A stretch of 64,000 nt of DNA from a phage: sequence record QB031382.1. The stretch is one strand, 5' to 3'. Both the position numbers and the translations under genes were made by a program. The notes under the pieces were generated by a model that did not search any database, had not been told where the DNA came from, and saw only the letters and a program-made list of their open reading frames with translations. This document shows positions 6,404 through 40,128 of the stretch, piece by piece (position 1 is the first letter of the stretch; every line of letters starts with the position of its first letter).

Positions 6404-8827
6404 ATGAGCATGTGGTCGTTCGATTTTGAGTCATCCGGTTTGCTGGAAGACCCAGATCTTTATTATCACTGCGGTCTGTTTAAAGAGTTGAATAAGAACC
6501 GTTTTATGCTGTTCCTTCCTCTAAATGACCGCACACACTACTCCGAGGAGGATATAGAAAAGGCTAAGAACTTCATTCTGGCAAAGAAAACTCTTTATAA
6601 AGATTTTGAAGTTCGCATAGCAGATTTTTCGGAGTTGGAAGGTTGGCTTACAGGAAATTCTGACTGGTCACCAACAGCTTTGAACTGCCATAACTGCTAC
6701 AGTTATGACTTTATGCTGATGGAAAGATTATCCGGTATTCATTTTGATATGTTCCGTGATCCTAAATGCATGGGGACTATCAACGACCACCAGGTTAACC
6801 TGTTTGATACGTTGGCGATGAGCCGAATCTTATGGCCTGATCGCCCTTTACCAAAAGGTTGTCCTGACTCCGTATTCAACCCGGTTACTAAGAAAATGCA
6901 GCCTGTTGGTCCTCACGGCCTTATGGCATGGGGCTACGCCCTTGGTAACCAGAAAGTTCAAATTGATGACTGGCGCGATCTTCCGTTGTGGAAGTATGTG
7001 GATCGTGTATTCGAGGACGTTATCATCCAGGAGCTGCTCTGGAAAGAGCTGGTAGCGGAATCAAAAGGTGTATTCTACGGCAAATCTGACATGCAGAACT
7101 TTATGTACGATCCTGCCAAAGAGAAGCCGAAAGGGTTCAAGAAGATCACCTGGAAGAACGCATTGCGCCGGGGTATGCTGCAACACTTCCTGATGGAGCT
7201 GCAGGCCCGTCAGGGTGTGTATTTTGACATAGATGGGGCTATTGCTTTACGTGACCGTTGCGATGCGTGGATGAAAGAAATCGCTGATCGTGTTGAACCA
7301 CAACTACCTTTAAAAGAGCTGTCAATGTCTCAGCGGCCCAAGTTCCCTGAAAAGCCGTTTAACCAAGATGGGACAATCTCCAATAATGGTTGGAAATGGT
7401 TAAAAGATAAGCTTGGCTATCCTGTGGACATGAGCGCTTTAGAGTTCAAAGCCCCACCTAAGCGAGCATTTACCTCCACAGGGGATGTCAGTAAGATGGG
7501 GATAAAATGGTGTGAAGAGATGGGCTGTAAAGACCCTGATAAGATGGCTGATTTCTTGAGGGGCTATATTAAGGGCACTTCCACACCACAACCTTTACCT
7601 AAAGAGCTAATGGATCAGGCAATAAGTGATCTACAGCAGAAGCGAATGCCTGACTGCAAGATACCTATGAAAATCAGCAATCAGGACGACATTAAGCGAT
7701 ACCTGATTAGTGCTGGTTGGCTTCCGACAATGTGGAGAACTAAGGATGTAACTAAAGACAGCAAGAAGAAAGCTCTACCTGATGCAGATGTTGATGCACG
7801 AGTATATGCATATATGGACGAGCTTTTAGAGTCAGAGTATTGTGACCTGATTATCAACTTCTGGAACAAAACTGATGCTAAGTTCCAGACAACCGTGCAC
7901 AAGTTCCGAAGCTTTCCTAACTCCGAAAGGATTAAAAAGGAAGTATTCGGGAAAATACGTAGAAAAGCTAGGGCACTTATTACTTCTCCGCAACTGAAAG
8001 ATACGTTTGGACACCTATGCCCTAATCTTGAAAAATTGAACGGAGAGATGGCTAAAGATATCGTCTTGTGGTTATCATTGCGAAACCGCAGATCGGTACT
8101 TGATCCAATTAAGGAGGATAAGGTTGATACTGGTCTTCTTAATCACCCACGTTTGAAGATTGACCATAAGCTTCCTGCTAAAAGTTCTGGGTTAACAAAC
8201 ACTTCCCGACAGAAACACAGTATTTGTGCGAACATGCCTAAACCATCTCCTAAAGTGGTTATGGGTAAAGAGATGCGTAGTCTGTGGGGTGTTCCTCCGG
8301 GATACTTTGAGATCGGTATTGACGGGTCCAACTTAGAGCAGCTTATCGGGGCTTGGGGTGCCTTTGAGTTCGACAACGGCTTGTATTATGATGTTGTAAG
8401 TAACGGGGACGCACACCAAAACAATGCTGAGGCATATACAAAAGTAGCAGGCAGAGAGGTGTCTCGTAACGACGGTAAACCTATCACGTATGGGGTTATG
8501 TACGGGGCACAAAAAGATAAAGTTGCAGACATGCTGGATATCTCTCCAGAGTTGGGGCAAAGGGTAATCGATGCGCTTTGGGATGCCAACCCCGGTCTTA
8601 AGGGGCGTAAAGAGGATCTAGAGAAATTCTGGGAAGCAACAGGTAAGAAATTTATCTACTCTTTTGACGGTCATGCCATTTGGACCCGCTCTAAACACTC
8701 TTTGCTTAATGCATATCAGCAAAATGGCGGTGCCTCGTTGTGCGACTTGGTCGGAATCCTCATGCACCACCAAATGGTGAAGCGTGGATGGTATGATGAG
8801 GGTGTTCGTCGTATTATTTATTACCAT
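6404..8827 (+). CDS. DNA polymerase, family A, exon 1
   Basis: Exo I SFDFESSGL, motif A GIDGSNLEQL, motif B KPITYGVMYG; exon ends at the CAT (His) codon 8825-8827 before the intron. Confidence 0.85.
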
Positions 8828-9155
8828 AAATAACATTGTGGCTTCGTGCAGTGATGCACGTCGAAAACCTCTTTAATTGACGGGAAGGCTAAGTTGACTT
8901 TTACACCTAAACATGGTAAAAGCTCAATATGCTAATCCGCAGCGAAGCATCCGAGAGGATGAACGTTCAGAGACTATCGAAAGCATAGCTCCAACATAGT
9001 TTGGTGTGAAGAAGCGAGTAGAGTAGGCCAGCAAGTGCGGTCGAAATGAGAGGTGCCTTGGTAACAAGGCAGTGAGATAGTCCGATCCATACGGGAAACT
9101 GTATGGCTATGCACGTAATGGTGCGGGGTAGCTTAACGACCTACCTGAACTATTG
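8828..9155 (+). ncRNA. group I self-splicing intron (no ORF) in the DNA polymerase gene
   Basis: Core elements P AATTGACGGGAA (8875-8886), Q AATCCGCAGC (8934-8943), R GTTCAGAGACTA (8965-8976), S GAGATAGTCC (9074-9083); U before 5' splice site pairs with guide GUGG 8838-8841; G9155 precedes 3' splice site. Confidence 0.75.
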
Positions 9156-26939: not shown

Positions 26940-26951
26940 TAAACATTATCA

Positions 26952-26978
26952 AGGGGCTTAGGCCCCTTTCTTTTTGTT
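26952..26978 (+). terminator. intrinsic terminator ending the plus-strand block
   Basis: Hairpin AGGGGC-TTA-GGCCCCT followed by TTCTTTTTG. Confidence 0.6.
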
Positions 26979-27731
26979 TGCTCTTTTCCTACCATAAACG
27001 GCCCTACCTGGCAAGTGGAATAATTGACGAGCCATTAATCCCGCACACTGTACAAATATACATATAAAATAACTATTGCATAATCTTTCATCTTGTGGTA
27101 GCAGGGTCATTTTTACACGTTTTTCCTTCCAAAAATGCACGTAATGCAGCTATTGCACAAAATTTAACCTGATGCACATTTTCAGCATACTGTCAACAAT
27201 TAAAAACCCTTATAAATCATACACTTACACAAACCAAAAAGCGTGTCCTACGTGAAAAATCGGGTGTAACTATAGCCGACAGATCTCAGAATCCACGTAC
27301 GATCACCATTCTATAGCCTGCTAAGTATTTATTCCAACCACAGAATAACGGAATAGTCAATACCTGTACAAAATAATTATTCGTATAAACTGCATAACAT
27401 AAATTTTCTCATGTGTAAACATTTTTCGTAAACAGTCCGAAATTGTCACGATAGGTTACTATAATCAGAGAAATCTTTAGTCGTCTAATGTTTACTGCAC
27501 ATAACTATACTGACTGGAATCATTAGATGACTAAGAGAAAGATAAGAAATAGTTAACAATGTAATTGTTTTACCTGTAACAATAAGGCAACTATGCAAAC
27601 GAATGTCATGGCGCGACGGAGTCGCGACATAATATAAAAGCAGTAACCATCACCCCCGTGATAGTTTATCTGCAAACTATTGATCAGATCATAGTTGCCT
27701 TAGATTTAGTTAATCATGACATAATAAGCAA

Positions 27732-27759
27732 GGCAACTATAGATCTGATAATAGTTGCC
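27732..27759. repeat. perfect palindrome
   Basis: GGCAACTAT-AGATCTGAT-AATAGTTGCC; half-sites recur nearby. Confidence 0.55.
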
Positions 27760-27789
27760 CTGCTTTTATATTATGTCATATATTATTAA

Positions 27790-27850
27790 CCTGTTAATTG
27801 TCAGCTTATTGGCTGTTAGCTTGTCAATTGTTAACTTGTTAATTGTTATC
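27790..27850. repeat. four tandem 15-bp iteron-like repeats
   Basis: CTGTTAATTGTCAGC / TTATTGGCTGTTAGC / TTGTCAATTGTTAAC / TTGTTAATTGTTATC. Confidence 0.55.
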
Positions 27851-29482
27851 ATGCAAACGAATGTCATGGCTTATCATCTTTGTGTAAACTGTCAGGGTGT
27901 AGACTATTCAAGGTGTAAATTATTCAGATGCAAACTATCCAGGCGTAAACAGTCTATGCGGGAACAATCTGCACGTGAACAATGAAACATGAAATAATAA
28001 CAGTCGTTATTGTATCGAAAGTGTATAAGGTGTCAGATTATGGCATATTGTGTGACATTGTGTCAGACAAGTTTTTCTCCTCTTTGTCAAGTGCTGCATG
28101 TAAAATTTACAAACTGGTATGGTAGCATTTTTGCGGCCCTGTTTACATTCAGGAGTGTATGTATAACCCTTGTTGTGTGGGCGTTTAGACGTCTGGACGG
28201 TCAGAAGTCTGCAGGTTAATATCTAATCTATTGGTCGCTAACTATATCCCCACAAATAATAAGAAATGCAATTGTTATATGCGTAAACAGTAACTCATGT
28301 TATCAATCCCTGTATGTATCGCCAGTGGTGCGCATAATGGGTATTATGTTAAATTGCCCGTAATGATAACGATTCTCACAATGATAGGTATTCTCATTCA
28401 CCCGCCCAGGATAGGTTGCAAATGTTGTGCCACTGTGTGAACGGCCTCGCCTATTAATTTGCCTCACTGCCCCGATATTTGAGAATTATTATAAGAATGA
28501 GAAGTATTCCCATTTCGTCCGCCTGGCAGCACTCCTGTAGGACAAGCACAAAATCGTGGCATAACTGTACCTGTTCAGATATTTCTGGCTGACTCTTCAG
28601 GTCTGTGTGGGAAAAGCCAACCTCTCCGGCGGCGGGGAGTGGGTCAATTAAAAAATTTACGTGGTGTATGAAGCGCTCTTCAGGTAAGGCAGGTATTATG
28701 GGATGAATCACTCTTCAGGTGATGATATTTGTAGGTGTGATATTTGCTGGAAAGCCAGATATGACGGGACTCCCGGCGGGGCAGGGGTAGTACAGACAGG
28801 GAAAATGTGGAGAATGTGGTGGGTAAATTGATCAAGCAGGTAGAGTATGGAATATGTTACAGGTATGTTAAATATGGAGGTAAGATATTTGTAAGATTTG
28901 TGTGTAAAATCAAAGACTTAAGTAGTGTTGTGGTATTTTCTATAAATAATTCAAGTTTAATAGGGAATATTTGCCTCTATCCACTTTGTATGGTAACTAT
29001 ATTCTAATTGAATTGGTTTACAAGTGTATATAAAGTATACAAATTAAAGATACAAGAAACCCCCCTCCCCCTTCGGCTACCATTCACCTTTTCCTCTGAC
29101 TGGTACTTAAACACTTATTCAGACTCTTCAGGTTATCACTCATATATCATATGGCAGTGACTGGTGTCCTCCGGCCCCTCTTTCGTCACCCGTCCGCTTC
29201 GCCATGCTAATGCCATAGCTAACTGTTCGGTTGTTCACCCTGTTCACTCAGGTGTATCTCCATACCCCTTCAAACCGAAGAGAACAGAAAACCCGAATTA
29301 CTCGGTAAAAGAAAAGAGAAGAACTTAATTTTATCAGGATAGGCAAGAATGTCAAGGCATGACTGCTCACTAAACAAGCAAACAGTCATGTGTGGGAGGT
29401 AAGTGATTGTGGTGGTAGGAAATTTAGTTGAAAGATGTGTTATAGGTGCTTCCAGCACTTTAGCCTGGCAGCTAATTGTGTG

Positions 29483-29698
29483 TCAGTCCAGCGGTTCATC
29501 CTCTACTTCACTGAAATCAATGTTCAGGGTCTCTTCCCAACCATCGATCTCAGCACAAGAGTGGAGTTCTTTAGGGTTTACTCCCAAAGCCTCAGCAACA
29601 GAGTCTATATTTAACACCTCTGGCAGGTATGATTCATCGAATTCAAGGTAAATCAGGCCACGAGTGTTGTCAGCTCCACCAAATATTTCTATCTTCAT
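29483..29698 (-). CDS. hypothetical acidic protein
   Basis: Tool ORF; last gene of minus-strand block. Confidence 0.4.
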   Translation of the reverse strand: MKIEIFGGADNTRGLIYLEFDESYLPEVLNIDSVAEALGVNPKELHSCAEIDGWEETLNIDFSEVEDEPLD

Positions 29699-30333: not shown

Positions 30334-30645
30334 CTATACCCATGAGGGCTTGTCCAGGTTGGAGTAACTGAAAGGGGTCAAAAGGTGACTGTCAAAATCT
30401 TTCAAACTGTCCAGATCTTTTTCCTCGTCCTGACACCATCTGTGTCTACATTTATTGTTGTAGTGCATGGAATGCATAGCGTTCTGCAACTTAATAGGCA
30501 CAAGTGATTCAGGAGTAGATAGAATTGTTGGGTATGCCAGAACTATCTCAAACAATGGAAACACATCGAAACTAAAGTCTACCTCTGCAGAGGTTGATGG
30601 CATATAGGAGTATTTAGCCGCCCTTGTAGACATAATCCACCTCAC
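30334..30645 (-). CDS. hypothetical protein
   Basis: Tool ORF abutting upstream ORF. Confidence 0.4.
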   Translation of the reverse strand: MRWIMSTRAAKYSYMPSTSAEVDFSFDVFPLFEIVLAYPTILSTPESLVPIKLQNAMHSMHYNNKCRHRWCQDEEKDLDSLKDFDSHLLTPFSYSNLDKPSWV

Positions 30646-32118: not shown

Positions 32119-32406
32119 TCATAGCGTCTCTAAAATTTCATACCCTTCGGGTCGGAAAACAAGCCACTCAGGTGCTCCATTTGGTCGATACGCTTTATAC
32201 AGAACAACCTGATCTCGGCACATACACATTGCTACATAGTTTTCATCCACACCTGCAGCCTGCATTGCATCTTCTTCTCCGGCAACCGCTTTGCTTACAA
32301 CTTCCTTGGTAGGCAGGTGGGCGATCAGCTCGTCACCATCGTTAATTCCAAAATGGCTGAGTTCTCCATTGGTATCTTTAATCTTGATCTTAACCAAATC
32401 TTTCAT
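32119..32406 (-). CDS. hypothetical small acidic protein
   Basis: Translationally coupled array 33343 to 32119. Confidence 0.5.
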   Translation of the reverse strand: MKDLVKIKIKDTNGELSHFGINDGDELIAHLPTKEVVSKAVAGEEDAMQAAGVDENYVAMCMCRDQVVLYKAYRPNGAPEWLVFRPEGYEILETL

Positions 32407-32735
32407 TAGTCTTCCCCCAAGTTCAAAGGTCCTAAGATTTCATATGCCAGATTAGAAGTTACCAGGGGATCTTCTGCATCTTTAGTATTATACCACCCGT
32501 GAATAACCAGAGTCCCACTTTGCTTCATGTCTAACTGAAACTGTTCTGCCGTTTCCTCATCCATCTCCAAGATCTCCATGAGGTATTTGATGTTAGGAAG
32601 GTATGCAGCTGTTACAGTCCCCTCTACCAGGCCTTCAGGCCAACCTACATCCGGATGACAAGTAGGGACCAGAGAGGTCAGCTTGATAGTGTATGCTTTT
32701 TCTGCACGAGCCTTCAGTAACGGATCAATTTTCAT
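32406..32735 (-). CDS. hypothetical protein
   Basis: Overlapping start/stop with neighbours. Confidence 0.5.
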   Translation of the reverse strand: MKIDPLLKARAEKAYTIKLTSLVPTCHPDVGWPEGLVEGTVTAAYLPNIKYLMEILEMDEETAEQFQLDMKQSGTLVIHGWYNTKDAEDPLVTSNLAYEILGPLNLGED

Positions 32736-33085
32736 TATTCTTCCTCCTCTTCGGTGCCTGCTTCCAGTAGTAAGTTAAGAACATCTTCAGCAGAAGGTTC
32801 GTAGAACTCCTGGCCTTCGTTGTCGATGATACGATAGTCATCACCACGAATAATCAGAGGATCGTTATCAAAACCTTCAAGACCTTTAACAACGACAACA
32901 CGGTCGATTGCCATCATTGTAAGAACTTTATCAACATCTTCCTCTGCCACACCATACTGCAGTAGGATGTCTTTGGTAGGAGGAACAGCATCAACCACAA
33001 CACCGTTACCAAAACCTTCCGGAAGTTTAGCTAAAATATCTTCCGGAACCGCATTCATATCAAAACCTGTGATCTCTACTTTCAT
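32735..33085 (-). CDS. hypothetical acidic protein
   Basis: Overlapping start/stop with neighbours; poly-Glu C-terminus. Confidence 0.5.
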   Translation of the reverse strand: MKVEITGFDMNAVPEDILAKLPEGFGNGVVVDAVPPTKDILLQYGVAEEDVDKVLTMMAIDRVVVVKGLEGFDNDPLIIRGDDYRIIDNEGQEFYEPSAEDVLNLLLEAGTEEEEE

Positions 33086-33343
33086 TTACAGCACCTCTTC
33101 GTCAACTACTTCATAAAAATGGCTTGGGATTGCAATAGCGTTCTCACCTTCACCTACAAACACGGTCCCGTCAAGGATCAACATCATAAGAATGTCTGTA
33201 ATATCCTCTTCCGGAACGTTGCCAAAACCTTTAATCAACTTATAGGTCGGGATATTCGCCTCTAAGATGTCGCCATCTTTAGAGCGGAAATCAACACCGT
33301 CCTGAATCTCTGCCGTTTCAAGGTTTTTCAATTTAATCTTCAT
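33086..33343 (-). CDS. hypothetical small acidic protein
   Basis: Tool ORF; N-terminus MKIKL shared with 34511-34780. Confidence 0.5.
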   Translation of the reverse strand: MKIKLKNLETAEIQDGVDFRSKDGDILEANIPTYKLIKGFGNVPEEDITDILMMLILDGTVFVGEGENAIAIPSHFYEVVDEEVL

Positions 33344-33422
33344 TAATCAGTCTCCTGCCTTGTTAAGATGAAGGTATTATTGCACACAGGGTTGGTGTTG
33401 TCAACACCTGTGTGGCATAAAA

Positions 33423-33818
33423 TTACTGAAACAGTGCAGATAAATTACCTTCTGGTGGAAACTTATCTGCCAAGAACGGAGTCAGAACAGTGGCCTTCTG
33501 AAGATCTGGAGTCCACTCGTTGTTCAGAACATCCCAGTAGTACGCAATGTTGCTGTGTGGGTGCCGCATTACGAACTTTTTCCCTTCGTAGTCAGTTGAA
33601 ACCTCTACAGAAGAAATAACAACAGAATCTTCAAGAGTTTCTTCATAGAAAGATCCACCCTCGAATTTCCAACGAGATGCAAGAGCTCCTGCCTTAAACG
33701 CTGCAGATAACGGACTGTCGGCAAGAACATACATTTCTTGCACTCTGTCGCTGCGATCTTTGCTTCTTACGTTGTATACAGTATCTGAGCTATACTCAAC
33801 ACGGTATAGACTTACCAT
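33423..33818 (-). CDS. hypothetical protein, paralogue of 35628-36038
   Basis: Shared motif HPxS..YW....WTP. Confidence 0.5.
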   Translation of the reverse strand: MVSLYRVEYSSDTVYNVRSKDRSDRVQEMYVLADSPLSAAFKAGALASRWKFEGGSFYEETLEDSVVISSVEVSTDYEGKKFVMRHPHSNIAYYWDVLNNEWTPDLQKATVLTPFLADKFPPEGNLSALFQ

Positions 33819-34150
33819 TACCGCACCTCCTCAATAACTTCCACATCTGAACCTACCACAAATGCAAAAGGACAGGTTTCATGAAAGACATCCGGATCGC
33901 CGCCAAGCTTGCTAACTATTTCTCCACCACTGATAAACACAAGCTCACCAATATTCATCAGATTGCTGAAATAGTATCCATAATGGTTAAAGAATGCAGC
34001 AGGGTCAGGTAGACTGGTGGCCTCAAGCTCTACATCGGTTGAGATTACTTTCTTATCATACCCTCTGGCCTTTTGAGATGCAAGATCTGCAGAATCCTCA
34101 GGCGACCGAAGATGCACAGGAATTGTTTCACCAATAAAGCGTACTTTCAT
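33818..34150 (-). CDS. hypothetical protein (GxDLxAAGA family)
   Basis: Start moved to ATG (MKVRFIG); family motif present. Confidence 0.45.
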   Translation of the reverse strand: MKVRFIGETIPVHLRSPEDSADLASQKARGYDKKVISTDVELEATSLPDPAAFFNHYGYYFSNLMNIGELVFISGGEIVSKLGGDPDVFHETCPFAFVVGSDVEVIEEVR

Positions 34151-34154
34151 ATTA

Positions 34155-34418
34155 TCACCCAACAACCATAGCTTCAAAAGGGGTCATAAACGAATAAACA
34201 GCATCATCATCTGCTTCAGGAAATGCCCCCAAAGCCTTCATGTCTGAGCCTTTAACAAATACAAGGTTTTGATCAAAAGCTTCTTGTGGATCAATCCGGT
34301 ACATATTTCGTAGGGTATCACTTACCTCATCATCAAGAGGCGAGTATGCTGTGCACGTTTTTCCAATCAAGCTTTGAGAATCAGGGTATCCACCTGAAGT
34401 TTTAAAATAAACAATCAT
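34155..34418 (-). CDS. hypothetical protein (GxDLxAAGA family)
   Basis: Motif FVKGSDMKALGA. Confidence 0.5.
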   Translation of the reverse strand: MIVYFKTSGGYPDSQSLIGKTCTAYSPLDDEVSDTLRNMYRIDPQEAFDQNLVFVKGSDMKALGAFPEADDDAVYSFMTPFEAMVVG

Positions 34419-34510
34419 ATAGTCTCACCTCTGGTAAGAGATGGGGATTCCTTTCCCACAAATAGTTACAAACCTTTCTTGTCGAGGAAAGTATGCTAAC
34501 CCAAGCAGGA

Positions 34511-34780
34511 TTACTCTTCTACAACCTCATACACATCCGGAGTTACAATCAACTCTTCTCCGTTACCCGGTGCAACAAACACCACCAGACCTTCAGGTGT
34601 GTGCTTTTTAGCCATTTCGATGACATCTTCTCGCAGAGCTGGCTCCATCAGATCAAAACCTTCACCCAGGGCATCACGAACCACCTTCATGTAGTCCACT
34701 GGTTGTGCTTCAACGATCATGCCTTCAACCAGTCCACAGTTTTTGTCTGCCAGCTCAGTTTGGAATAATTTAATTTTCAT
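34511..34780 (-). CDS. hypothetical small acidic protein
   Basis: Tool ORF. Confidence 0.5.
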   Translation of the reverse strand: MKIKLFQTELADKNCGLVEGMIVEAQPVDYMKVVRDALGEGFDLMEPALREDVIEMAKKHTPEGLVVFVAPGNGEELIVTPDVYEVVEE

Positions 34781-34806
34781 TTAGAGGTCTCCTCAATTAT
34801 TTGATA

Positions 34807-34908
34807 TTAATAGCCGTAACCTAACACATTAACTACAACTGCGATTGCAAACATAATTTCAAAGCATGCAATCTCTACATTTGGGACTAATTTCTTAATC
34901 ATGCCCAT
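34807..34908 (-). CDS. small hydrophobic peptide (33 aa)
   Basis: Hand-translated MGMIKKLVPNVEIACFEIMFAIAVVVNVLGYGY; SD GAGGTG upstream. Confidence 0.35.
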   Translation of the reverse strand: MGMIKKLVPNVEIACFEIMFAIAVVVNVLGYGY

Positions 34909-34923
34909 TGTAGCACCTCAATC

Positions 34924-35235
34924 TCAAAAGTCAATCTTTACTTTACCTTTTCCCTTACCTTTCTTTCCACCACATTTAGCCAACTGGCGTGCTGCAACAT
35001 CTACCATACGGTCAGTTGCCTCGTAAGCATCACTACCTTTAGCTTTGGCAATGACTTCTTTTCCAGAATTGTCAAAAATGAAAGCCATAACTTCCTGGTG
35101 ATCATTTTCAACTTTTACACTCACACGTGCATAGTTGGCAGAGGGGTGCAAACGCTCCAGCTTAGACATTTTGTGGGAAATGAAAGACACCATACCTTCA
35201 GTGATTTCTACGTTGCCAGTGATTTCAATTTGCAT
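34924..35235 (-). CDS. hpf: ribosome hibernation promoting factor / RaiA family homologue
   Basis: MQIEITGNVEITEGM...KLERL...VSVKVEN...KAKGSDAYEATDRMVDVAARQLAK aligns along its length with remembered E. coli HPF/YfiA; SD GGAG upstream. Confidence 0.7.
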   Translation of the reverse strand: MQIEITGNVEITEGMVSFISHKMSKLERLHPSANYARVSVKVENDHQEVMAFIFDNSGKEVIAKAKGSDAYEATDRMVDVAARQLAKCGGKKGKGKGKVKIDF

Positions 35236-35319
35236 AACGTGCTCCTTTTAAGGAAGAGAGAATAACAACCATCTCTTGAAAACAATAATACTATAGCTGA
35301 AGCGTTGTGTCAACAGTTT

Positions 35320-35610
35320 TTACAGCTTATTATCGATAGTATCTAAAATATCTACAGCAAGATCTGCCATTTTTCGAACATACTCTGCAAACTCAACAGG
35401 ATCCTTGATCAAAGAATTCACAGGGTCGTACCCTAGAGCGTTCAAAATGGCTGCAGCATCTACAACCTTCTCATCATTTGCGAAGATCTCACCGTCAAAC
35501 TTGTAGGTCCATTTTGAGTCAATCTTGGCATGGCAGGATTGGTCCATGCTTATTACACCATCTTTTTTAAACGATTCGGTGTTATCAGTGTCCAAAACTA
35601 AATCCATCAT
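35320..35610 (-). CDS. hypothetical protein
   Basis: Tool ORF. Confidence 0.5.
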   Translation of the reverse strand: MMDLVLDTDNTESFKKDGVISMDQSCHAKIDSKWTYKFDGEIFANDEKVVDAAAILNALGYDPVNSLIKDPVEFAEYVRKMADLAVDILDTIDNKL

Positions 35611-35627
35611 GTAAGTACCCCACTATT

Positions 35628-36038
35628 TCAGCTTATCTTTTCTTCAACAACCCCATAGCTTGGGGCAGAGTCAAGAGCTTTCTGGTTTAAAAGTGGTGTA
35701 GCAGAATCTGCAAACGGTGTCCAGGTTTTTGTTCTGGCATTCCAGTAATGCTTCACTCTAGAATCAGGATGCACTATAATAAAAACTTTTTCACTTGTCA
35801 ACACGTTAATTTCTTCCACACCCTTGCTGACAATTTCTCCGTCATAGCCTCCAGTCTGGTATCCTTCGTACCAGGTTCTTGCATAGGCATATCCAGCCTG
35901 CCAGCATGCAGCCTCTTCAGAGGTGGAGACTACGTAGAAGTCTTTCTCAAACTCTGGGATACGCCCTTGCTTTACGCTCCAAGCTCCGCGAATTTTCATT
36001 GTAACTTTAAACAGTTTATTTTTCACAACAGTCCCCAA
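35628..36038 (-). CDS. hypothetical protein, paralogue of 33423-33818
   Basis: Shared motif HPDSRVKHYWNARTKTWTP. Confidence 0.5.
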   Translation of the reverse strand: MGTVVKNKLFKVTMKIRGAWSVKQGRIPEFEKDFYVVSTSEEAACWQAGYAYARTWYEGYQTGGYDGEIVSKGVEEINVLTSEKVFIIVHPDSRVKHYWNARTKTWTPFADSATPLLNQKALDSAPSYGVVEEKIS

Positions 36039-36293
36039 TCACGGCTCTAAAATATCTGCATCTGACCCTACCCCAAAGGCATAATACGAGTCCTCTCCGA
36101 AATAATATTCCGGAGCACCAGCCGCGATCAGGTCTGATCCCAAAATGAACACCACATTGTGGCCTACATAGCTGTGATTTTGCCGCACAGGATCATCCCA
36201 CGGCAACCCTTCGAAGTATACAGCAGGTACTACCTTTCCCTTCAGGAATGATTGTCCCAAGTAGACGTTAGAGTCAAGAATTTTAACCTTCAT
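36039..36293 (-). CDS. hypothetical protein (GxDLxAAGA family)
   Basis: MKVKILDSN...GSDLIAAGA; coupled to neighbours. Confidence 0.5.
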   Translation of the reverse strand: MKVKILDSNVYLGQSFLKGKVVPAVYFEGLPWDDPVRQNHSYVGHNVVFILGSDLIAAGAPEYYFGEDSYYAFGVGSDADILEP

Positions 36294-36507
36294 AATCGTC
36301 CTCCACTATCTCCACATCCTCCCCTAGGGCAAAGTTGTAGGCCCACTGACTGTCAAAGCATTCCTGAGACGCGCCAGCGGCAATAAGATCTGCCCCTTTT
36401 ATTTTTAAAAGGTCAGGATAATCTTCGTTAGGGATAGCGGTAAACACTTTTCCAACTAAAGGCTCTTGACCAATATAGAAGTTTGAATCTAAAACTTTCA
36501 CTTTCAT
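36283..36507 (-). CDS. hypothetical protein (GxDLxAAGA family)
   Basis: MKVKVLDSN...KGADLIAAGA; start overlaps upstream stop. Confidence 0.5.
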   Translation of the reverse strand: MKVKVLDSNFYIGQEPLVGKVFTAIPNEDYPDLLKIKGADLIAAGASQECFDSQWAYNFALGEDVEIVEDDYEG

Positions 36508-36791
36508 CAGCGGTCTCCATCGGGCGGTTGTGGAACGTAAACACTGTTACGAATCTCGTCAGCAGTGTAGTAACAAGTTTTCCCCTCTCTGTCTCTGGCA
36601 GCAATGTATTCAGCTATACCAATAAGTGCCATAGACTTGGTAGCGTATCTCTTAAGCTCGTTAGCTCCCCAGCAAAATCTCTGCCAAAACGGTATGAAAC
36701 CGAATAGGTACACTTTCTGTTTTACTATCCAATAAGTGCCTTTACAGATCACTTTAAACTCTGCAGCACTGTTGCTGACACCATTGCTCAT
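36507..36791 (-). CDS. hypothetical protein
   Basis: Tool ORF. Confidence 0.45.
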   Translation of the reverse strand: MSNGVSNSAAEFKVICKGTYWIVKQKVYLFGFIPFWQRFCWGANELKRYATKSMALIGIAEYIAARDREGKTCYYTADEIRNSVYVPQPPDGDR

Positions 36792-36803
36792 TATCTTCTC
36801 CTT

Positions 36804-37088
36804 TTATTTTTCTGGGTTTGGTAGATATTGCACATTGGCAGGAGGAACACCGGATAGCTCCCAAACAACCATAGTGCTGTACCCTGGCACACTTCTAACA
36901 TTTAAAAGAGTAGGAGCACCAACACATTTAAACTTCCTTTTCCCAAATCCGTTCTCCATCATAACCCAGTATCCTGTATCCTGATCACCTGGAATTTGTG
37001 TTCCATCATCGTCCACCCAGCGGACGGTCCATTTCGATACAGCAACGGCTCGGTATTTAAACTTTTTAAACCACTCAAACAGTTTCAT
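36804..37088 (-). CDS. hypothetical protein
   Basis: Tool ORF. Confidence 0.45.
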   Translation of the reverse strand: MKLFEWFKKFKYRAVAVSKWTVRWVDDDGTQIPGDQDTGYWVMMENGFGKRKFKCVGAPTLLNVRSVPGYSTMVVWELSGVPPANVQYLPNPEK

Positions 37089-37172
37089 AATTAGCCATAA
37101 TAACTATAAACAGACAAATAATGAATCCGAATGCCACGCCACCCATAAACGTTAATATTGATGCGACCATAA

Positions 37173-37358
37173 TCAATCATCCTCGTTTGGCAGCTCTTCC
37201 ATTTTGACATACCGGAAAGTGTTGCCGTAATAGTTGATCCATGACATCAGCTCGCTTTCTTGCTCTTCCTCTGGGATTGACTCTCGGATGCTGACAAGTT
37301 TTAAGAAAATCCAATCACAATCTGCACCCATCCTACCAGACAGGCAATAGTGCTTCAT
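37173..37358 (-). CDS. hypothetical protein
   Basis: Tool ORF. Confidence 0.4.
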   Translation of the reverse strand: MKHYCLSGRMGADCDWIFLKLVSIRESIPEEEQESELMSWINYYGNTFRYVKMEELPNEDD

Positions 37359-37376
37359 AGAACCCTCCCGACTGGT

Positions 37377-37571
37377 TTAGAATATTGCTTCTTCCATTGC
37401 ACCTGAGAGCAACAAAGAGGTAATATGGCTAACATTCATCTCAGACTCTACTTCCTCCCCTTTGAAAGGTTCGCGGCAGAATAGGACTGTTTCAGGACTT
37501 TTACTTCGAACAATATAATACAAATCATTCAAAGTGTTGTAGTAATAAGTGTTAAAACGTAAGTTTTTCAT
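37377..37571 (-). CDS. hypothetical protein
   Basis: Tool ORF overlapping upstream gene end. Confidence 0.4.
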   Translation of the reverse strand: MKNLRFNTYYYNTLNDLYYIVRSKSPETVLFCREPFKGEEVESEMNVSHITSLLLSGAMEEAIF

Positions 37572-37855
37572 TTTCTAGTCCCCTTCTTAGATTTTTGTGA
37601 AGAAACGCTTTCTGCAATACGAGACAGGCGTTCTTCTGAAGCTTTACCTACCCCAGGTTTCTTGAGCGGGTTATCTTTATGACCGCAATCCAATTGGATG
37701 CTAGATACCTCTCCAACCTTGTAAGTCAATTCTAGCAAAAGGTTGTCGTCCTTGTCAAATGTTTTTACGATAAATTTTTTATCGTCCTCCTGAACTTCAT
37801 ACCTAGTACCTGCAGTATACAGCATGGTGCCATCAGTGTAGGATATCCAAATCAT
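37568..37855 (-). CDS. hypothetical protein
   Basis: Tool ORF; overlapping start/stop. Confidence 0.45.
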   Translation of the reverse strand: MIWISYTDGTMLYTAGTRYEVQEDDKKFIVKTFDKDDNLLLELTYKVGEVSSIQLDCGHKDNPLKKPGVGKASEERLSRIAESVSSQKSKKGTRK

Positions 37856-38199
37856 TGCACCTCCTTCTGCTGCAACAGCATTAACTCTTTGTTGGAAATC
37901 TTTACTACTGTCTTTATTGTTCCATCTTCACGGAACCACGACCAGAATTCTACAGTGTCACCACTATCAAGCAAGGCATGACCATGGTAAAAATCCTTGT
38001 CCTTAGACAGTTTCTCATCTATATCTGCATCGACACATTCGTGATCCATAGCATTTTGCCTGAATGCATCGGTTATGCCAATGCATGCCTTGCTCTCAAG
38101 ACTGGCATATCCGATATCTTTTAATTCAGTTTCCCAAACCCAGAACCCTATAAAAGCCACAACAGCTACCCACATTAATATCGATTTAATCTTTGACAT
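37852..38199 (-). CDS. hypothetical protein with N-terminal signal/TM segment
   Basis: N-terminus MSKIKSILMWVAVVAFIGFWVW hydrophobic. Confidence 0.5.
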   Translation of the reverse strand: MSKIKSILMWVAVVAFIGFWVWETELKDIGYASLESKACIGITDAFRQNAMDHECVDADIDEKLSKDKDFYHGHALLDSGDTVEFWSWFREDGTIKTVVKISNKELMLLQQKEVQ

Positions 38200-38259
38200 T
38201 CTCTCTACCTCTTTCTTAATTTGTTTAATTATGGCACATCCTTTGTGCCTTGTTGCACA

Positions 38260-38730
38260 CTACTTAGACAACAGTTCAAAATAGTGCAAAATTAACAGAA
38301 GTTGAATTACGCCTAGCACAACGGTAAGTATGTTAATCTTAGAATCAAAAAACTTCTTAACTTTTACTCTAAAAGGTTCCTTAATGTCCTTTACGATCCT
38401 ATCTATAGATGACCTCATATCTCTGATTACCATCCTGAACATTAAAGACGGATGCTCCCCCATCTCTGTAACGGAATCGAAAACATACTCTCTTCGGTCA
38501 TAAGGGCCGCCAGCTCTGCGTATTAACCTCTCCACAGAGACCTCGAACGTCACACCTGTAACGTAATCATCTATAACAAGTCGTGACGGGTCTTTACCTT
38601 TACTATCAAGAGGTATCAAAGTTATCTTTCCAGATTTTGTTAAAATTTCTCCTTTTTCAAGCAAGGTGTACCAATGCTCTCTACCAAGATTGTTGAGGCA
38701 CGTTTTTACATATTTAACAAACATCGTCAC
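38260..38730 (-). CDS. hypothetical protein with C-terminal TM anchor
   Basis: C-terminus ILTVVLGVIQLLLILHYF hydrophobic. Confidence 0.5.
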   Translation of the reverse strand: MTMFVKYVKTCLNNLGREHWYTLLEKGEILTKSGKITLIPLDSKGKDPSRLVIDDYVTGVTFEVSVERLIRRAGGPYDRREYVFDSVTEMGEHPSLMFRMVIRDMRSSIDRIVKDIKEPFRVKVKKFFDSKINILTVVLGVIQLLLILHYFELLSK

Positions 38731-38930
38731 CCCTTATCGCACGTCTGATATAACCATTCTATGAAATCTTGATACCACTCTCCCTCTGAGCGCTCCGTAG
38801 GCCAATAATCTTCCCCCTCTCTTGCATTAAAATCTGAGTATTCGACTTTCCACTCCTTTACCAGCTCGTGGAGAAGGTTTTCAGCCTGTTCTAAGGATTT
38901 ATTTTTTGTCATTACTGTCCCCTTTTTCAA
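38727..38930 (-). CDS. hypothetical protein
   Basis: Tool ORF. Confidence 0.4.
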   Translation of the reverse strand: MKKGTVMTKNKSLEQAENLLHELVKEWKVEYSDFNAREGEDYWPTERSEGEWYQDFIEWLYQTCDKG

Positions 38931-39132
38931 GATAATTATACATCAGTGCCGCGCCACCCAAAATGGCTACTAGCAGTAATACTCCAGAGAGCATTTCAAT
39001 AAACATGGCTTGAAACATTAGAAGGCCCCCTCTAATTTCACGCACCATTTTAAATACATACTCTTTTCCCATGAAGATGCTAAACTAAGGTCTGTATAGA
39101 ATGCAATCTCCCTAAGAACAGCATAAACAGTT

Positions 39133-39369
39133 TCAGGCACTGTTACCATTCTTATCTGCCTCCTTCATTTTCCTGACGGTTTTACAGTGATCTACCAAGC
39201 ACATAACCACAATGAAGAGAACAATAGGCCAAAAAGGTGCGGCAGTGATTATAGTTATAAAGTCGTCAAACTTAATTTTTCTACAAGATATGATGCAAAG
39301 AGTTGCTAAAACAACCATTGTCAGAAAGGTCAATGCGCAATACCAAACCAGCACAGTGTCTATAGTCAT
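39133..39369 (-). CDS. hypothetical membrane protein
   Basis: Two hydrophobic helices. Confidence 0.45.
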   Translation of the reverse strand: MTIDTVLVWYCALTFLTMVVLATLCIISCRKIKFDDFITIITAAPFWPIVLFIVVMCLVDHCKTVRKMKEADKNGNSA

Positions 39370-39370
39370 A

Positions 39371-39898
39371 CTATATCTCCTGGTTCAAACTGTTAAGAAA
39401 GGATACCCTGTCTTCGCTATTTTTCTCTGTGATGTACCCTCCAAACATGGAAAGAATCACATGCTTCAAGTAATCTTTTTCTGGGTCGCTTAGATGATTG
39501 CGTGGCTTTATTTCCACATCATGGTAGTCATACAATCCACAATCATGATACCCCCAGTATCGACACACCTCAATACTGATCGGGAGTTTTTTGTCACACG
39601 AAACTTTCCAACGGGTTACGTTGTTACCAGGAGATAAATCCTCTCCCACCTTCACGAATGACAAATCATAATTCATAAACTTTTCGTACAGTTTAAGTAC
39701 AAAACCTTCTACCTGTGGAGAAACACCAGCCACTAGCTGGGCGTATCTATATTTACTTTCAATAATTTTTCGGCGCTTTGCTGTAAGGTTTATTGCAGCA
39801 ATTTGACTCTCCGAGTATCTCCAAGGCTTATATATAAATGCTTTCGGGTCTTTATCGCCATAAAAATCTTTCCAATCAACTAGCAGCATACCTGTCAC
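39371..39898 (-). CDS. hypothetical protein
   Basis: Tool ORF, 175 aa. Confidence 0.5.
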   Translation of the reverse strand: MTGMLLVDWKDFYGDKDPKAFIYKPWRYSESQIAAINLTAKRRKIIESKYRYAQLVAGVSPQVEGFVLKLYEKFMNYDLSFVKVGEDLSPGNNVTRWKVSCDKKLPISIEVCRYWGYHDCGLYDYHDVEIKPRNHLSDPEKDYLKHVILSMFGGYITEKNSEDRVSFLNSLNQEI

Positions 39899-40128
39899 TC
39901 CTCCACAACTTCAAGGCCTTTGCCGCCTCGTTCTGGTAGATTACTTAAAGACAGGTAATACGTATAGTCAGGAGAGATCCTACCAGACTCTGCACCTGCA
40001 GATAGTAAATCTTTTCCCTTAACCATGACAACATTATCGTTTGCAGATAGTCGTTTTGCTTCCACAGTTTTACCAACGCAGTCAACCAAGGAAGGGTACC
40101 CTAAATCTGTAAGAAATTTAACTTTCAT
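39895..40128 (-). CDS. hypothetical protein (GxDLxAAGA family)
   Basis: MKVKFLTD...KGKDLLSAGA. Confidence 0.5.
   Translation of the reverse strand: MKVKFLTDLGYPSLVDCVGKTVEAKRLSANDNVVMVKGKDLLSAGAESGRISPDYTYYLSLSNLPERGGKGLEVVEE

Follow-up and report, generated by a model that had tools for sequence, protein, structure and literature searches.

A five-member family of small proteins with a predicted SH3-like fold and a probably host-specific gene cassette in an rV5-like phage

A 64,000-nucleotide stretch of phage DNA (sequence record QB031382.1, referred to below as the window) represents a Vequintavirus (rV5/FV3-like) genome and encodes on its minus strand five small paralogous proteins, here termed family A, as well as a separate pair of proteins, 35628 and 33423, termed family B (genes are named by their lower coordinate). 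Four of the family A genes and both family B genes form two cassettes with the order A-A-B. Taken together, profile searches, structure prediction and published transposon-insertion data on orthologous genes indicate that family A consists of diverged paralogs with a predicted SH3-like fold, and that cassette 2 (34155-33818-33423) probably serves as a host-specific infection module, likely by neutralising a strain-specific host factor. Phages of the rV5-like group, which rank with the most frequently isolated E. coli phages, are therapy candidates, and most of their small genes are without known role.

Five paralogs form one family

An earlier reading of the window, made from its letters alone (the sequence-only reading), had proposed five related minus-strand open reading frames (ORFs) and a further related pair. 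All seven ORFs are present, at the following positions (lengths in amino acids, aa):

39895..40128, minus strand: family A, 77 aa, stand-alone copy
36283..36507, minus strand: family A, 74 aa, first gene of cassette 1, the protein used for modelling
36039..36293, minus strand: family A, 84 aa, second gene of cassette 1, with an 11-nucleotide (nt) overlap with 36283
35628..36038, minus strand: family B, third gene of cassette 1, phrog_7379 at 6e-73
34155..34418, minus strand: family A, 87 aa, divergent, first gene of cassette 2
33818..34150, minus strand: family A, 110 aa, most divergent member, second gene of cassette 2
33423..33818, minus strand: family B, 131 aa, third gene of cassette 2, phrog_7379 at 4e-66

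Their counterparts in phage FV3 (ORFs 119, 132, 133, 134, 139, 140 and 141) are all labelled 'hypothetical protein'. The 7.2 kb surrounding these genes share 96% DNA identity with Escherichia phages FV3 and SYGMH1 and match 122 phage records, nearly all of them Vequintavirus (rV5-like myoviruses); about 119 Vequintavirus records retain the block. Eighteen records named as Campylobacter phages (e.g. MG065646 and MG065666; host Campylobacter jejuni) are 93-96% identical to the block and look like mislabelled or contaminated deposits.

The relatedness of the five family A members was assessed with three kinds of profile test. Hidden Markov models (HMMs) built with one member left out, when run on the complete set of 466 six-frame ORFs from the window, recovered the omitted member with E-values of 1e-15, 1e-14, 7e-7, 8e-7 and 8e-6, the best unrelated ORF reaching E 0.09-4. 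A remote-only profile of 58 distant relatives, containing no Vequintavirus sequence, recovered exactly the five window ORFs at E 6e-23 to 2.7e-6 (next match 0.15), and the whole FV3 genome (922 ORFs) likewise yielded exactly five family A members. The leave-one-out, remote-only and whole-genome tests thus all agree on a second paralogous family of five small proteins, as the sequence-only reading had proposed, with significant relatedness for every omitted member (E 1e-15 to 8e-6). Stand-alone pairwise blastp is weak for some members (0.003-0.14 for 34155 and 9e-4 for 33818), as would be expected if the likeness had arisen by chance between short, compositionally similar proteins, but that idea has practically no probability left and is refuted by the profile tests, all three of which pick exactly the five members at least 4-5 orders of magnitude above noise.

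The literal motifs by which the family had been described suit its three core members well and the two divergent members, 34155 and 33818, poorly. The proposed start MK[VI][KR][FVI]L is found in 39895, 36283 and 36039 and departs from the sequences of 34155 (MIVYFK) and 33818 (MKVRFI). The internal motif [VI]KGxDL[IL]xAGA is exact in 39895 and 36283, and is altered in 36039 (ILGSDLIAAGA), 34155 (VKGSDMKALGA) and 33818 (ISGGEIVSKLGG). The separate pair 35628/33423 is indeed homologous (blastp E 1.7e-9 over 111 residues, both proteins in phrog_7379), and a link between families A and B was rejected (hhalign probability 0.05%). The statement that these families occupy much of the 29-41 kb region was too generous, since the two families account for about 2.1 kb of these 12 kb, and for about 3.6 kb when another small family, described in the last section, is counted in.

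Every start codon of the seven ORFs has a purine-rich ribosome-binding site upstream. Against orthologs 92-96% identical in DNA, the ratio of non-synonymous to synonymous differences (pN/pS) lies at about 0.05-0.18 in family A and at 0.00-0.04 in family B, and all five family A genes are under purifying selection. Ribosome-binding sites, pN/pS and conservation of the block establish that the seven ORFs are real genes.

Gene-by-gene comparison revealed a gradient of divergence within family A. The 36283 product matches phrog_5009 at 6.1e-38 (pN/pS 0.08-0.11), and that of 36039, which carries a 15-residue insertion in the beta2-beta3 loop, matches it at 3.6e-32 (pN/pS 0.09-0.18; blastp against 36283 5e-14, 41% identity). 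The stand-alone 39895 (phrog_5009 at 2.3e-35; left-out HMM E 6.8e-7; remote-only profile 3.2e-17; pN/pS 0.15-0.32) is the window copy that retrieves the single-copy homologs of mEp-type temperate coliphages. Further away lie 34155 (phrog_13920 at 1e-60 and phrog_5009 at 2.8e-5; left-out HMM 8.3e-7; remote-only profile 1.5e-6; pN/pS 0.05-0.14) and 33818, which has an insertion of about 50 residues in the beta2-beta3 loop and matches phrog_13661 at 3e-75 and phrog_5009 at merely 0.15 (left-out HMM 8e-6; remote-only profile 2.7e-6; pN/pS 0.00-0.09). For 33818 the ATG at 34150 is favoured as start over the TTG at 34177 because of its ribosome-binding site and the FV3 annotation.

The A-A-B order occurs twice, as 36283-36039-35628 (cassette 1) and as 34155-33818-33423 (cassette 2), with reading frames that overlap or nearly abut; in cassette 2, 34155 and 33818 are separated by 4 nt, and 33818 and 33423 share a TAATG stop/start overlap. 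Of the two family B genes, 33423 shows pN/pS of 0.00-0.04, and 35628 has as the longest possible ORF one whose TTG start directly follows the preceding stop codon; its true start is more likely the GTG at 36026 (four codons in, 132 aa) or an ATG 13 codons in (123 aa), both of them chosen by other annotators and the ATG used for the Bas phages. Whether the two cassettes descend from a single three-gene duplication or from independent tandem duplications is a question for which the sequences are too short and too diverged: 36283 and 36039 are mutually closest relatives, and 34155 and 33818 share just weak derived features.

The genes between the cassettes are, in the direction of transcription, a group of three that includes a RaiA/HPF homolog and then one from the other small family. 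A sigma-70-like promoter match (34907..34934, minus strand: TTGACT, 16 nt, TACAAT, with an upstream TG; a consensus match only) could drive a small ORF, 34511 and all three genes of cassette 2 (34155, 33818 and 33423). The next strong sigma-70-like match, at 33404-33376, falls just downstream of 33423 and would open the following unit.

Transposon data suggest that cassette 2 is required on one of two hosts

Orthologs of all seven genes are present in the Vequintavirus Bas54 (MaxBurger, MZ501093), which has been subjected to transposon-insertion sequencing in the HIDEN-SEQ preprint (bioRxiv 10.1101/2025.11.20.689424). The data used here are those of one pooled transposon experiment, given in the preprint's supplement, in which growth on E. 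coli K-12 was compared with growth on the uropathogenic isolate CFE311. On K-12, bas54_0150, 0157, 0158, 0159 and 0166 were classed as non-essential, with insertions at 25 of 25 TA sites in 0150, and 0151 (16/22 TA sites hit) and 0152 (10/14) as intermediate. The mean insertion counts on K-12 and on CFE311 are given below with the log2 fold change; identities to the window proteins are from blastp.

bas54_0152 (34155, family A, 96.6% aa identity): 142.2 to 0.0, log2 fold change -7.16, adjusted p 0
bas54_0151 (33818, family A, 97.3% aa identity): 71.0 to 0.0, log2 fold change -6.17, adjusted p 0
bas54_0150 (33423, family B, 98.5% aa identity): 108.3 to 0.0, log2 fold change -6.77, adjusted p 0
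bas54_0157 (35628, family B, 96.7% aa identity): 255.9 to 57.4, log2 fold change -2.14, adjusted p 0
bas54_0158 (36039, family A, 94.0% aa identity): 188.5 to 153.5, log2 fold change -0.30, not significant
bas54_0159 (36283, family A, 91.9% aa identity): 176.4 to 348.2, log2 fold change +0.98, not significant
bas54_0166 (39895, family A, 93.5% aa identity): 374.3 to 618.8, log2 fold change +0.72, not significant
bas54_0149 (flanking gene): 450.1 to 594.9, log2 fold change +0.40, not significant
bas54_0153 (flanking gene): 142.2 to 19.8, log2 fold change -2.78, p 0.30, not significant

All three genes of cassette 2 thus lost every insertion on CFE311, and the flanking genes 0149 and 0153-0156 showed no significant depletion on that strain. 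A cassette that is dispensable on K-12 and indispensable on CFE311 carries the signature of a host-range or counter-defence function. The text of the preprint is silent on 0150-0152, its follow-up, knockouts included, being limited to bas54_0063 and bas54_0140, two factors against the predicted defence system DS-28 (10.1101/2025.11.20.689424).

The second of these has an ortholog in the window (30334-30645, minus strand, 94.9% aa identity). In the preprint bas54_0140 is needed to overcome DS-28 of E. coli CFE311 (10.1101/2025.11.20.689424). It resembles the cassette 2 genes in lying in the same block and in being likewise non-essential on K-12 and strongly depleted on CFE311, but its sequence is unrelated to families A and B, and it is knockout-validated and matched to a defence system. 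The RaiA/HPF homolog situated between the cassettes (34924-35235, minus strand; Pfam Ribosomal_S30AE, 1.7e-12) has a Bas54 ortholog that is non-essential on K-12 and not depleted on CFE311 (10.1101/2025.11.20.689424). In the same supplement (Extended Data Table 8, S6/S7), the sheet 'resampling_K-12_vs_CFE303' shares its command and input files (B54_2_311) with the CFE311 sheet, so that both tables are the CFE311 comparison, and the true CFE303 table seems to be missing.

Predicted fold and sequence anatomy of family A

Structure prediction, which had been suggested along with profile searches in the sequence-only reading, gave a confident model of the 74-aa 36283 product (AlphaFold2, 36-sequence alignment; predicted local distance difference test score, pLDDT, 92.3; predicted template modelling score, pTM, 0.80). 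It consists of five strands and a short helix, and the motif G38-x-D40-L-I-x-x-G45-A46 covers the end of predicted strand 3 and this helix. On the strength of the model, family A is assigned with moderate confidence to the SH3-like five-stranded small beta-barrels. The corresponding model of family B, built from six available homologs, reached a pLDDT of only 50.8.

Foldseek comparison of the family A model with the PDB returned nothing at E<=0.001, and comparison with viral models returned uncharacterised phage proteins only, some of them from T4-like phages. Relative to known SH3-like barrels (PsaE, the Spt5/NusG KOW domain, the retroviral integrase C-terminal domain and eukaryotic SH3), no sequence relationship was found. 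Classical SH3 domains have a tight hairpin after strand 3, whereas the family A model has at this place the short helix bearing GxDLIxxGA; and in contrast to KOW domains and ribosomal proteins, family A is acidic. No homology to any known SH3-like family is claimed, and the fold class itself is a known one.

Across 68 aligned sequences the conserved positions are M1, K2, V3, K4, L5, L6, Y11, A24, I36, G38, D/E40, L41, I42, G45, A46, Y57, F59, V67 and V68. All of them are core or turn residues except K2, K4 and D/E40, and no enzyme-type constellation of polar residues is found among them. As judged from the model, the motif would be part of the scaffold rather than an active site. Variation is concentrated elsewhere: 18 of the 68 sequences, including 36039, 34155 and 33818, carry insertions after position 30, and a second cluster of insertions and deletions falls at model positions 59-65, in the last hairpin (39895 and the prophage forms). 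Isoelectric points (pI) of 4.05-5.4 mark all five proteins as acidic, the 39895 product only mildly so (net charge -1.5), and most other small proteins of the block are acidic too. The acidity of family A argues against direct nucleic-acid binding. A conserved scaffold with variable loops, combined with the tandem repeats and fusions seen among relatives (see below), fits a binding module, and family A may accordingly be pictured as a non-enzymatic binding module whose specificity would lie in its loops.

Family A extends beyond rV5-like phages

When 1.84 billion cluster representatives were searched exhaustively with an HMM, 92 clusters matched at E<=0.001. Their members follow the common pattern MKVKLLNDGGY.GM...G..V.A......G.ELI..GA...F....Y.F....E.EVVEE, and 67 of the 68 aligned relatives match phrog_5009. 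Ten PHROGs are touched in all (5009, 13367, 13920, 13661, 8603, 7345, 15322, 20482, 9595 and 13854), each of them annotated as 'unknown function'. PHROGs splits the five window paralogs into three unlinked families and gives neither fold, function nor link; the unity of these three groups is established in this analysis.

A word-indexed search returned mostly Vequintavirus proteins and, in addition, a 75-aa protein in more than 300 sequences from E. coli genomes, where its gene is part of mEp021-type prophages and lies between those for the Q antiterminator and the holin. On temperate-phage contigs the family gene adjoins integrase, NinX, RecT, YqaJ, SSB, NinB and NinG, all of which are accessory positions of early operons. 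The single-copy temperate members occupy the nin and exo-xis regions of lambdoid phages; with the small accessory ORFs known from there they share their position alone, and none of the named lambda gene products was matched. Some relatives carry two to three tandem copies of the domain in one chain, and others are extended by a DUF3310 domain or by a tail that is Cys-rich or acidic. The distant relative P0067 has a separate C-terminal DUF3310 domain at 2.6e-20, and DUF3310 (PF11753) has no match in any protein of the window families.

Pfam has no family for the five window proteins or the 68 relatives, NCBIfam gave no meaningful match for family A, and the best hit of a profile search against the PDB (0.013) was to an unrelated repeat protein. 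The remark in the sequence-only reading that the families have no recognisable function therefore stands as far as Pfam, NCBIfam, the PDB and the PHROG annotations are concerned, and is now supplemented by the predicted SH3-like fold and by the host-specific phenotype of three of the seven genes. A literature search found no paper naming the PHROG identifiers and none on family A; the rV5 genome paper says nothing on paralogs or duplications, the homolog gp40 receives no discussion in the mEp021 paper, and a CRISPRi-ART study of the Vequintavirus EdH4 had capsid and rII genes as its sole targets. A structural role in the virion was considered and gained no support: the proteomics section in the main text of the rV5 paper names gp52, 53, 60, 61, 64 and 133 after trypsin digestion and adds tail, tail-fibre and baseplate proteins for the total proteome, and no gene number listed there lies at the family positions in the block, the rV5 numbers of the members not having been worked out.

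Natural turnover of the cassettes

Cassette 1 is unstable in nature. On two contigs (L010 and L011, 4001-4213) a single 70-aa chimera replaces 36283 and 36039, with the crossover lying within the codons of the AAGA motif, and natural deletion variants of this cassette are represented by the proteins P0015, P0018, P0080 and P0120. One variant has an internal deletion of 36039 (P0080 and P0120 being internal deletions or fusions of these genes), and in another the family B gene has been lost through fusion of the 36039 N-terminus with the C-terminal part of the 35320-35610 product. A divergent relative (40-70% protein identity) retains of its 36039 homolog a remnant of 44 aa, lacks the first family B gene and has an intact cassette 2. 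For phage V18 (locus L009, 12583-13181), the annotation gives the 34155 and 33818 orthologs as short fragments, 180 and 141 bp long; single-base gaps seen in the alignments could be either frameshifts or sequencing errors.

A host-specific module and its alternatives

In the explanation favoured here, the two family A proteins and the family B protein of cassette 2 would act jointly, with the family A proteins as binding subunits, and the products of the cassette would bind and neutralise a host factor specific to strain CFE311, probably a component of anti-phage defence. The other three paralogs, which selection has retained in about 119 genomes, would act on barriers that are absent from both tested strains. 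Joint A-A-B function is favoured because the insertions upstream in cassette 1 were not depleted and because the authors of the preprint find little polarity. The importance of cassette 2 is supported by its being intact, at only 40-58% protein identity, in the divergent relative whose cassette 1 has decayed, and an accessory, early-type context is supported by the sigma-70-like promoters in the block and by the early-operon neighbours in temperate phages.

Several points weigh against this explanation. The phenotype was seen in a single pooled experiment, reported in a preprint's supplement, without clean deletions or complementation, and the counter-defence role is putative. Of the five paralogs, 39895, 36283 and 36039 show no phenotype on either strain, and defence may not be the only difference between CFE311 and K-12. 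Finally, the two family A genes could be depleted because insertions in them have a polar effect on the family B gene downstream.

This last point leads to the strongest rival, which is held to be rather unlikely: growth on CFE311 would depend on the family B protein 33423 alone, the family A genes would merely seem required through polarity of the insertions within a translationally coupled operon, and family A itself would have another, possibly minor role. The tight packing of cassette 2, with its 4-nt gap and the TAATG overlap, is compatible with such coupling, and in cassette 1 the family B gene 0157 is depleted and its upstream family A genes are not, so that the requirement tracks family B in both cassettes. 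The same observation, however, speaks against simple polarity, because insertions in 0158 and 0159, placed upstream of the depleted 0157 in the same arrangement, would have been expected to be depleted as well. Moreover, 0153, upstream of 0152, is not significantly depleted, purifying selection on family A is as strong as on its neighbours, and the authors regard polar effects as limited in extent and report that an insertion ahead of an essential gene is usually tolerated (10.1101/2025.11.20.689424).

Improbable, and better regarded as a version of the favoured explanation than as a true alternative, is the proposal that family A proteins are acidic mimics or decoys (e.g. of DNA) that sequester a host protein which binds DNA, such as a nuclease involved in restriction or defence. 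The family is strongly acidic, and its relatives P0039 and P0044 carry acidic C-terminal tails, but the net charge of 39895 is low and the small proteins of the block are mostly acidic, so that charge is not distinctive. A precedent for the mechanism, though for nothing beyond it, is CarS of Myxococcus xanthus, an antirepressor that mimics operator DNA and acts by protein binding; the likeness consists in its being small, acidic and SH3-like. Slightly less probable still is that family A proteins are nucleic-acid-binding barrels (KOW, Sm, Tudor, L24 or L21e-like) that tune transcription or translation, perhaps together with the RaiA/HPF homolog. The barrel fold would allow this, but no Pfam KOW match was obtained at E<=1, the proteins are acidic throughout (pI range given above), and they lack a conserved basic patch.

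The favoured explanation, a host-specific module built on SH3-like paralogs, can be carried further. In this bolder form, which is tentative and perhaps doubtful, family A would be a widespread modular class of counter-defence binders; the A-A-B complex of cassette 2 would disarm a defence of CFE311, the paralogs would constitute an arsenal in which the variable loops of each copy handle a different host barrier, and the tandem-domain versions of other phages would be its counterpart in fused form. Small accessory proteins on which the growth of a phage on particular strains depends are of a known kind; what sets family A apart is how widely it occurs, that it has expanded five-fold and that it is paired with a second family. 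Three unlinked groups of 'hypothetical' genes are here joined into one family with a predicted fold, which reaches far beyond rV5-like phages into temperate and other virulent phages, and overlooked public data on the Bas54 orthologs indicate that one cassette decides the growth of a phage on a clinical strain. Following up this cassette may lead to a new counter-defence mechanism or to a new defence system, and either outcome bears on host-range prediction for therapeutic phages.

Other features of the block

The small-gene block of the minus strand extends from 41-43 kb, where a ClpP-like protease and a DNA methyltransferase are encoded, down to an ORF-poor stretch near 27-29.5 kb, and contains a further paralogous family of small acidic proteins (MKIK...YEVVEE; 32119-34780, minus strand) with the following members:

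34511-34780, minus strand: member of the other small family
33086-33343, minus strand: member of the other small family
32735-33085, minus strand: member of the other small family
32406-32735, minus strand: member of the other small family
32119-32406, minus strand: member of the other small family

Leave-one-out HMMs recovered four of these members at E 5e-6 to 2e-3, with 32406 marginal (0.03), and the ORF 29483-29698 was not confirmed as a member. A link between this family and family A was not accepted, the hhalign probability being 2.4% with the shallow profile and 57.6% with the deep one, the latter over the first 26 residues only; from this N-terminal likeness a distant common origin of the two families is possible.

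Two further ORFs of the block deserve mention. A 78-aa protein with two hydrophobic segments (39133-39369, minus strand) fits the description of rV5 gp129, the holin proposed in the rV5 paper, and a 156-aa ORF (38260-38730, minus strand), corresponding to an FV3 gene labelled 'virion structural protein', is probably the counterpart of rV5 gp133, which is present in virions. With a holin-like and a virion-protein ORF among its members, the block is not purely one of early accessory genes.

At the lower end of the block, about 26940-29480, plus- and minus-strand transcription converge on an ORF-poor stretch of roughly 2.5 kb, where the guanine-cytosine (GC) skew changes sign. The rV5 paper labels the matching stretch 'non-coding', and the Bas54 counterpart (about 2 kb, intergenic) is without tolerated transposon insertions in the HIDEN-SEQ data (bioRxiv 10.1101/2025.11.20.689424), which suggests an essential non-coding function. 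A scan of the whole window with Rfam at the gathering threshold returned nothing in this stretch and identified, at 8818-9105 on the plus strand, a group I catalytic intron (RF00028, 75.6 bits, E 2e-17).

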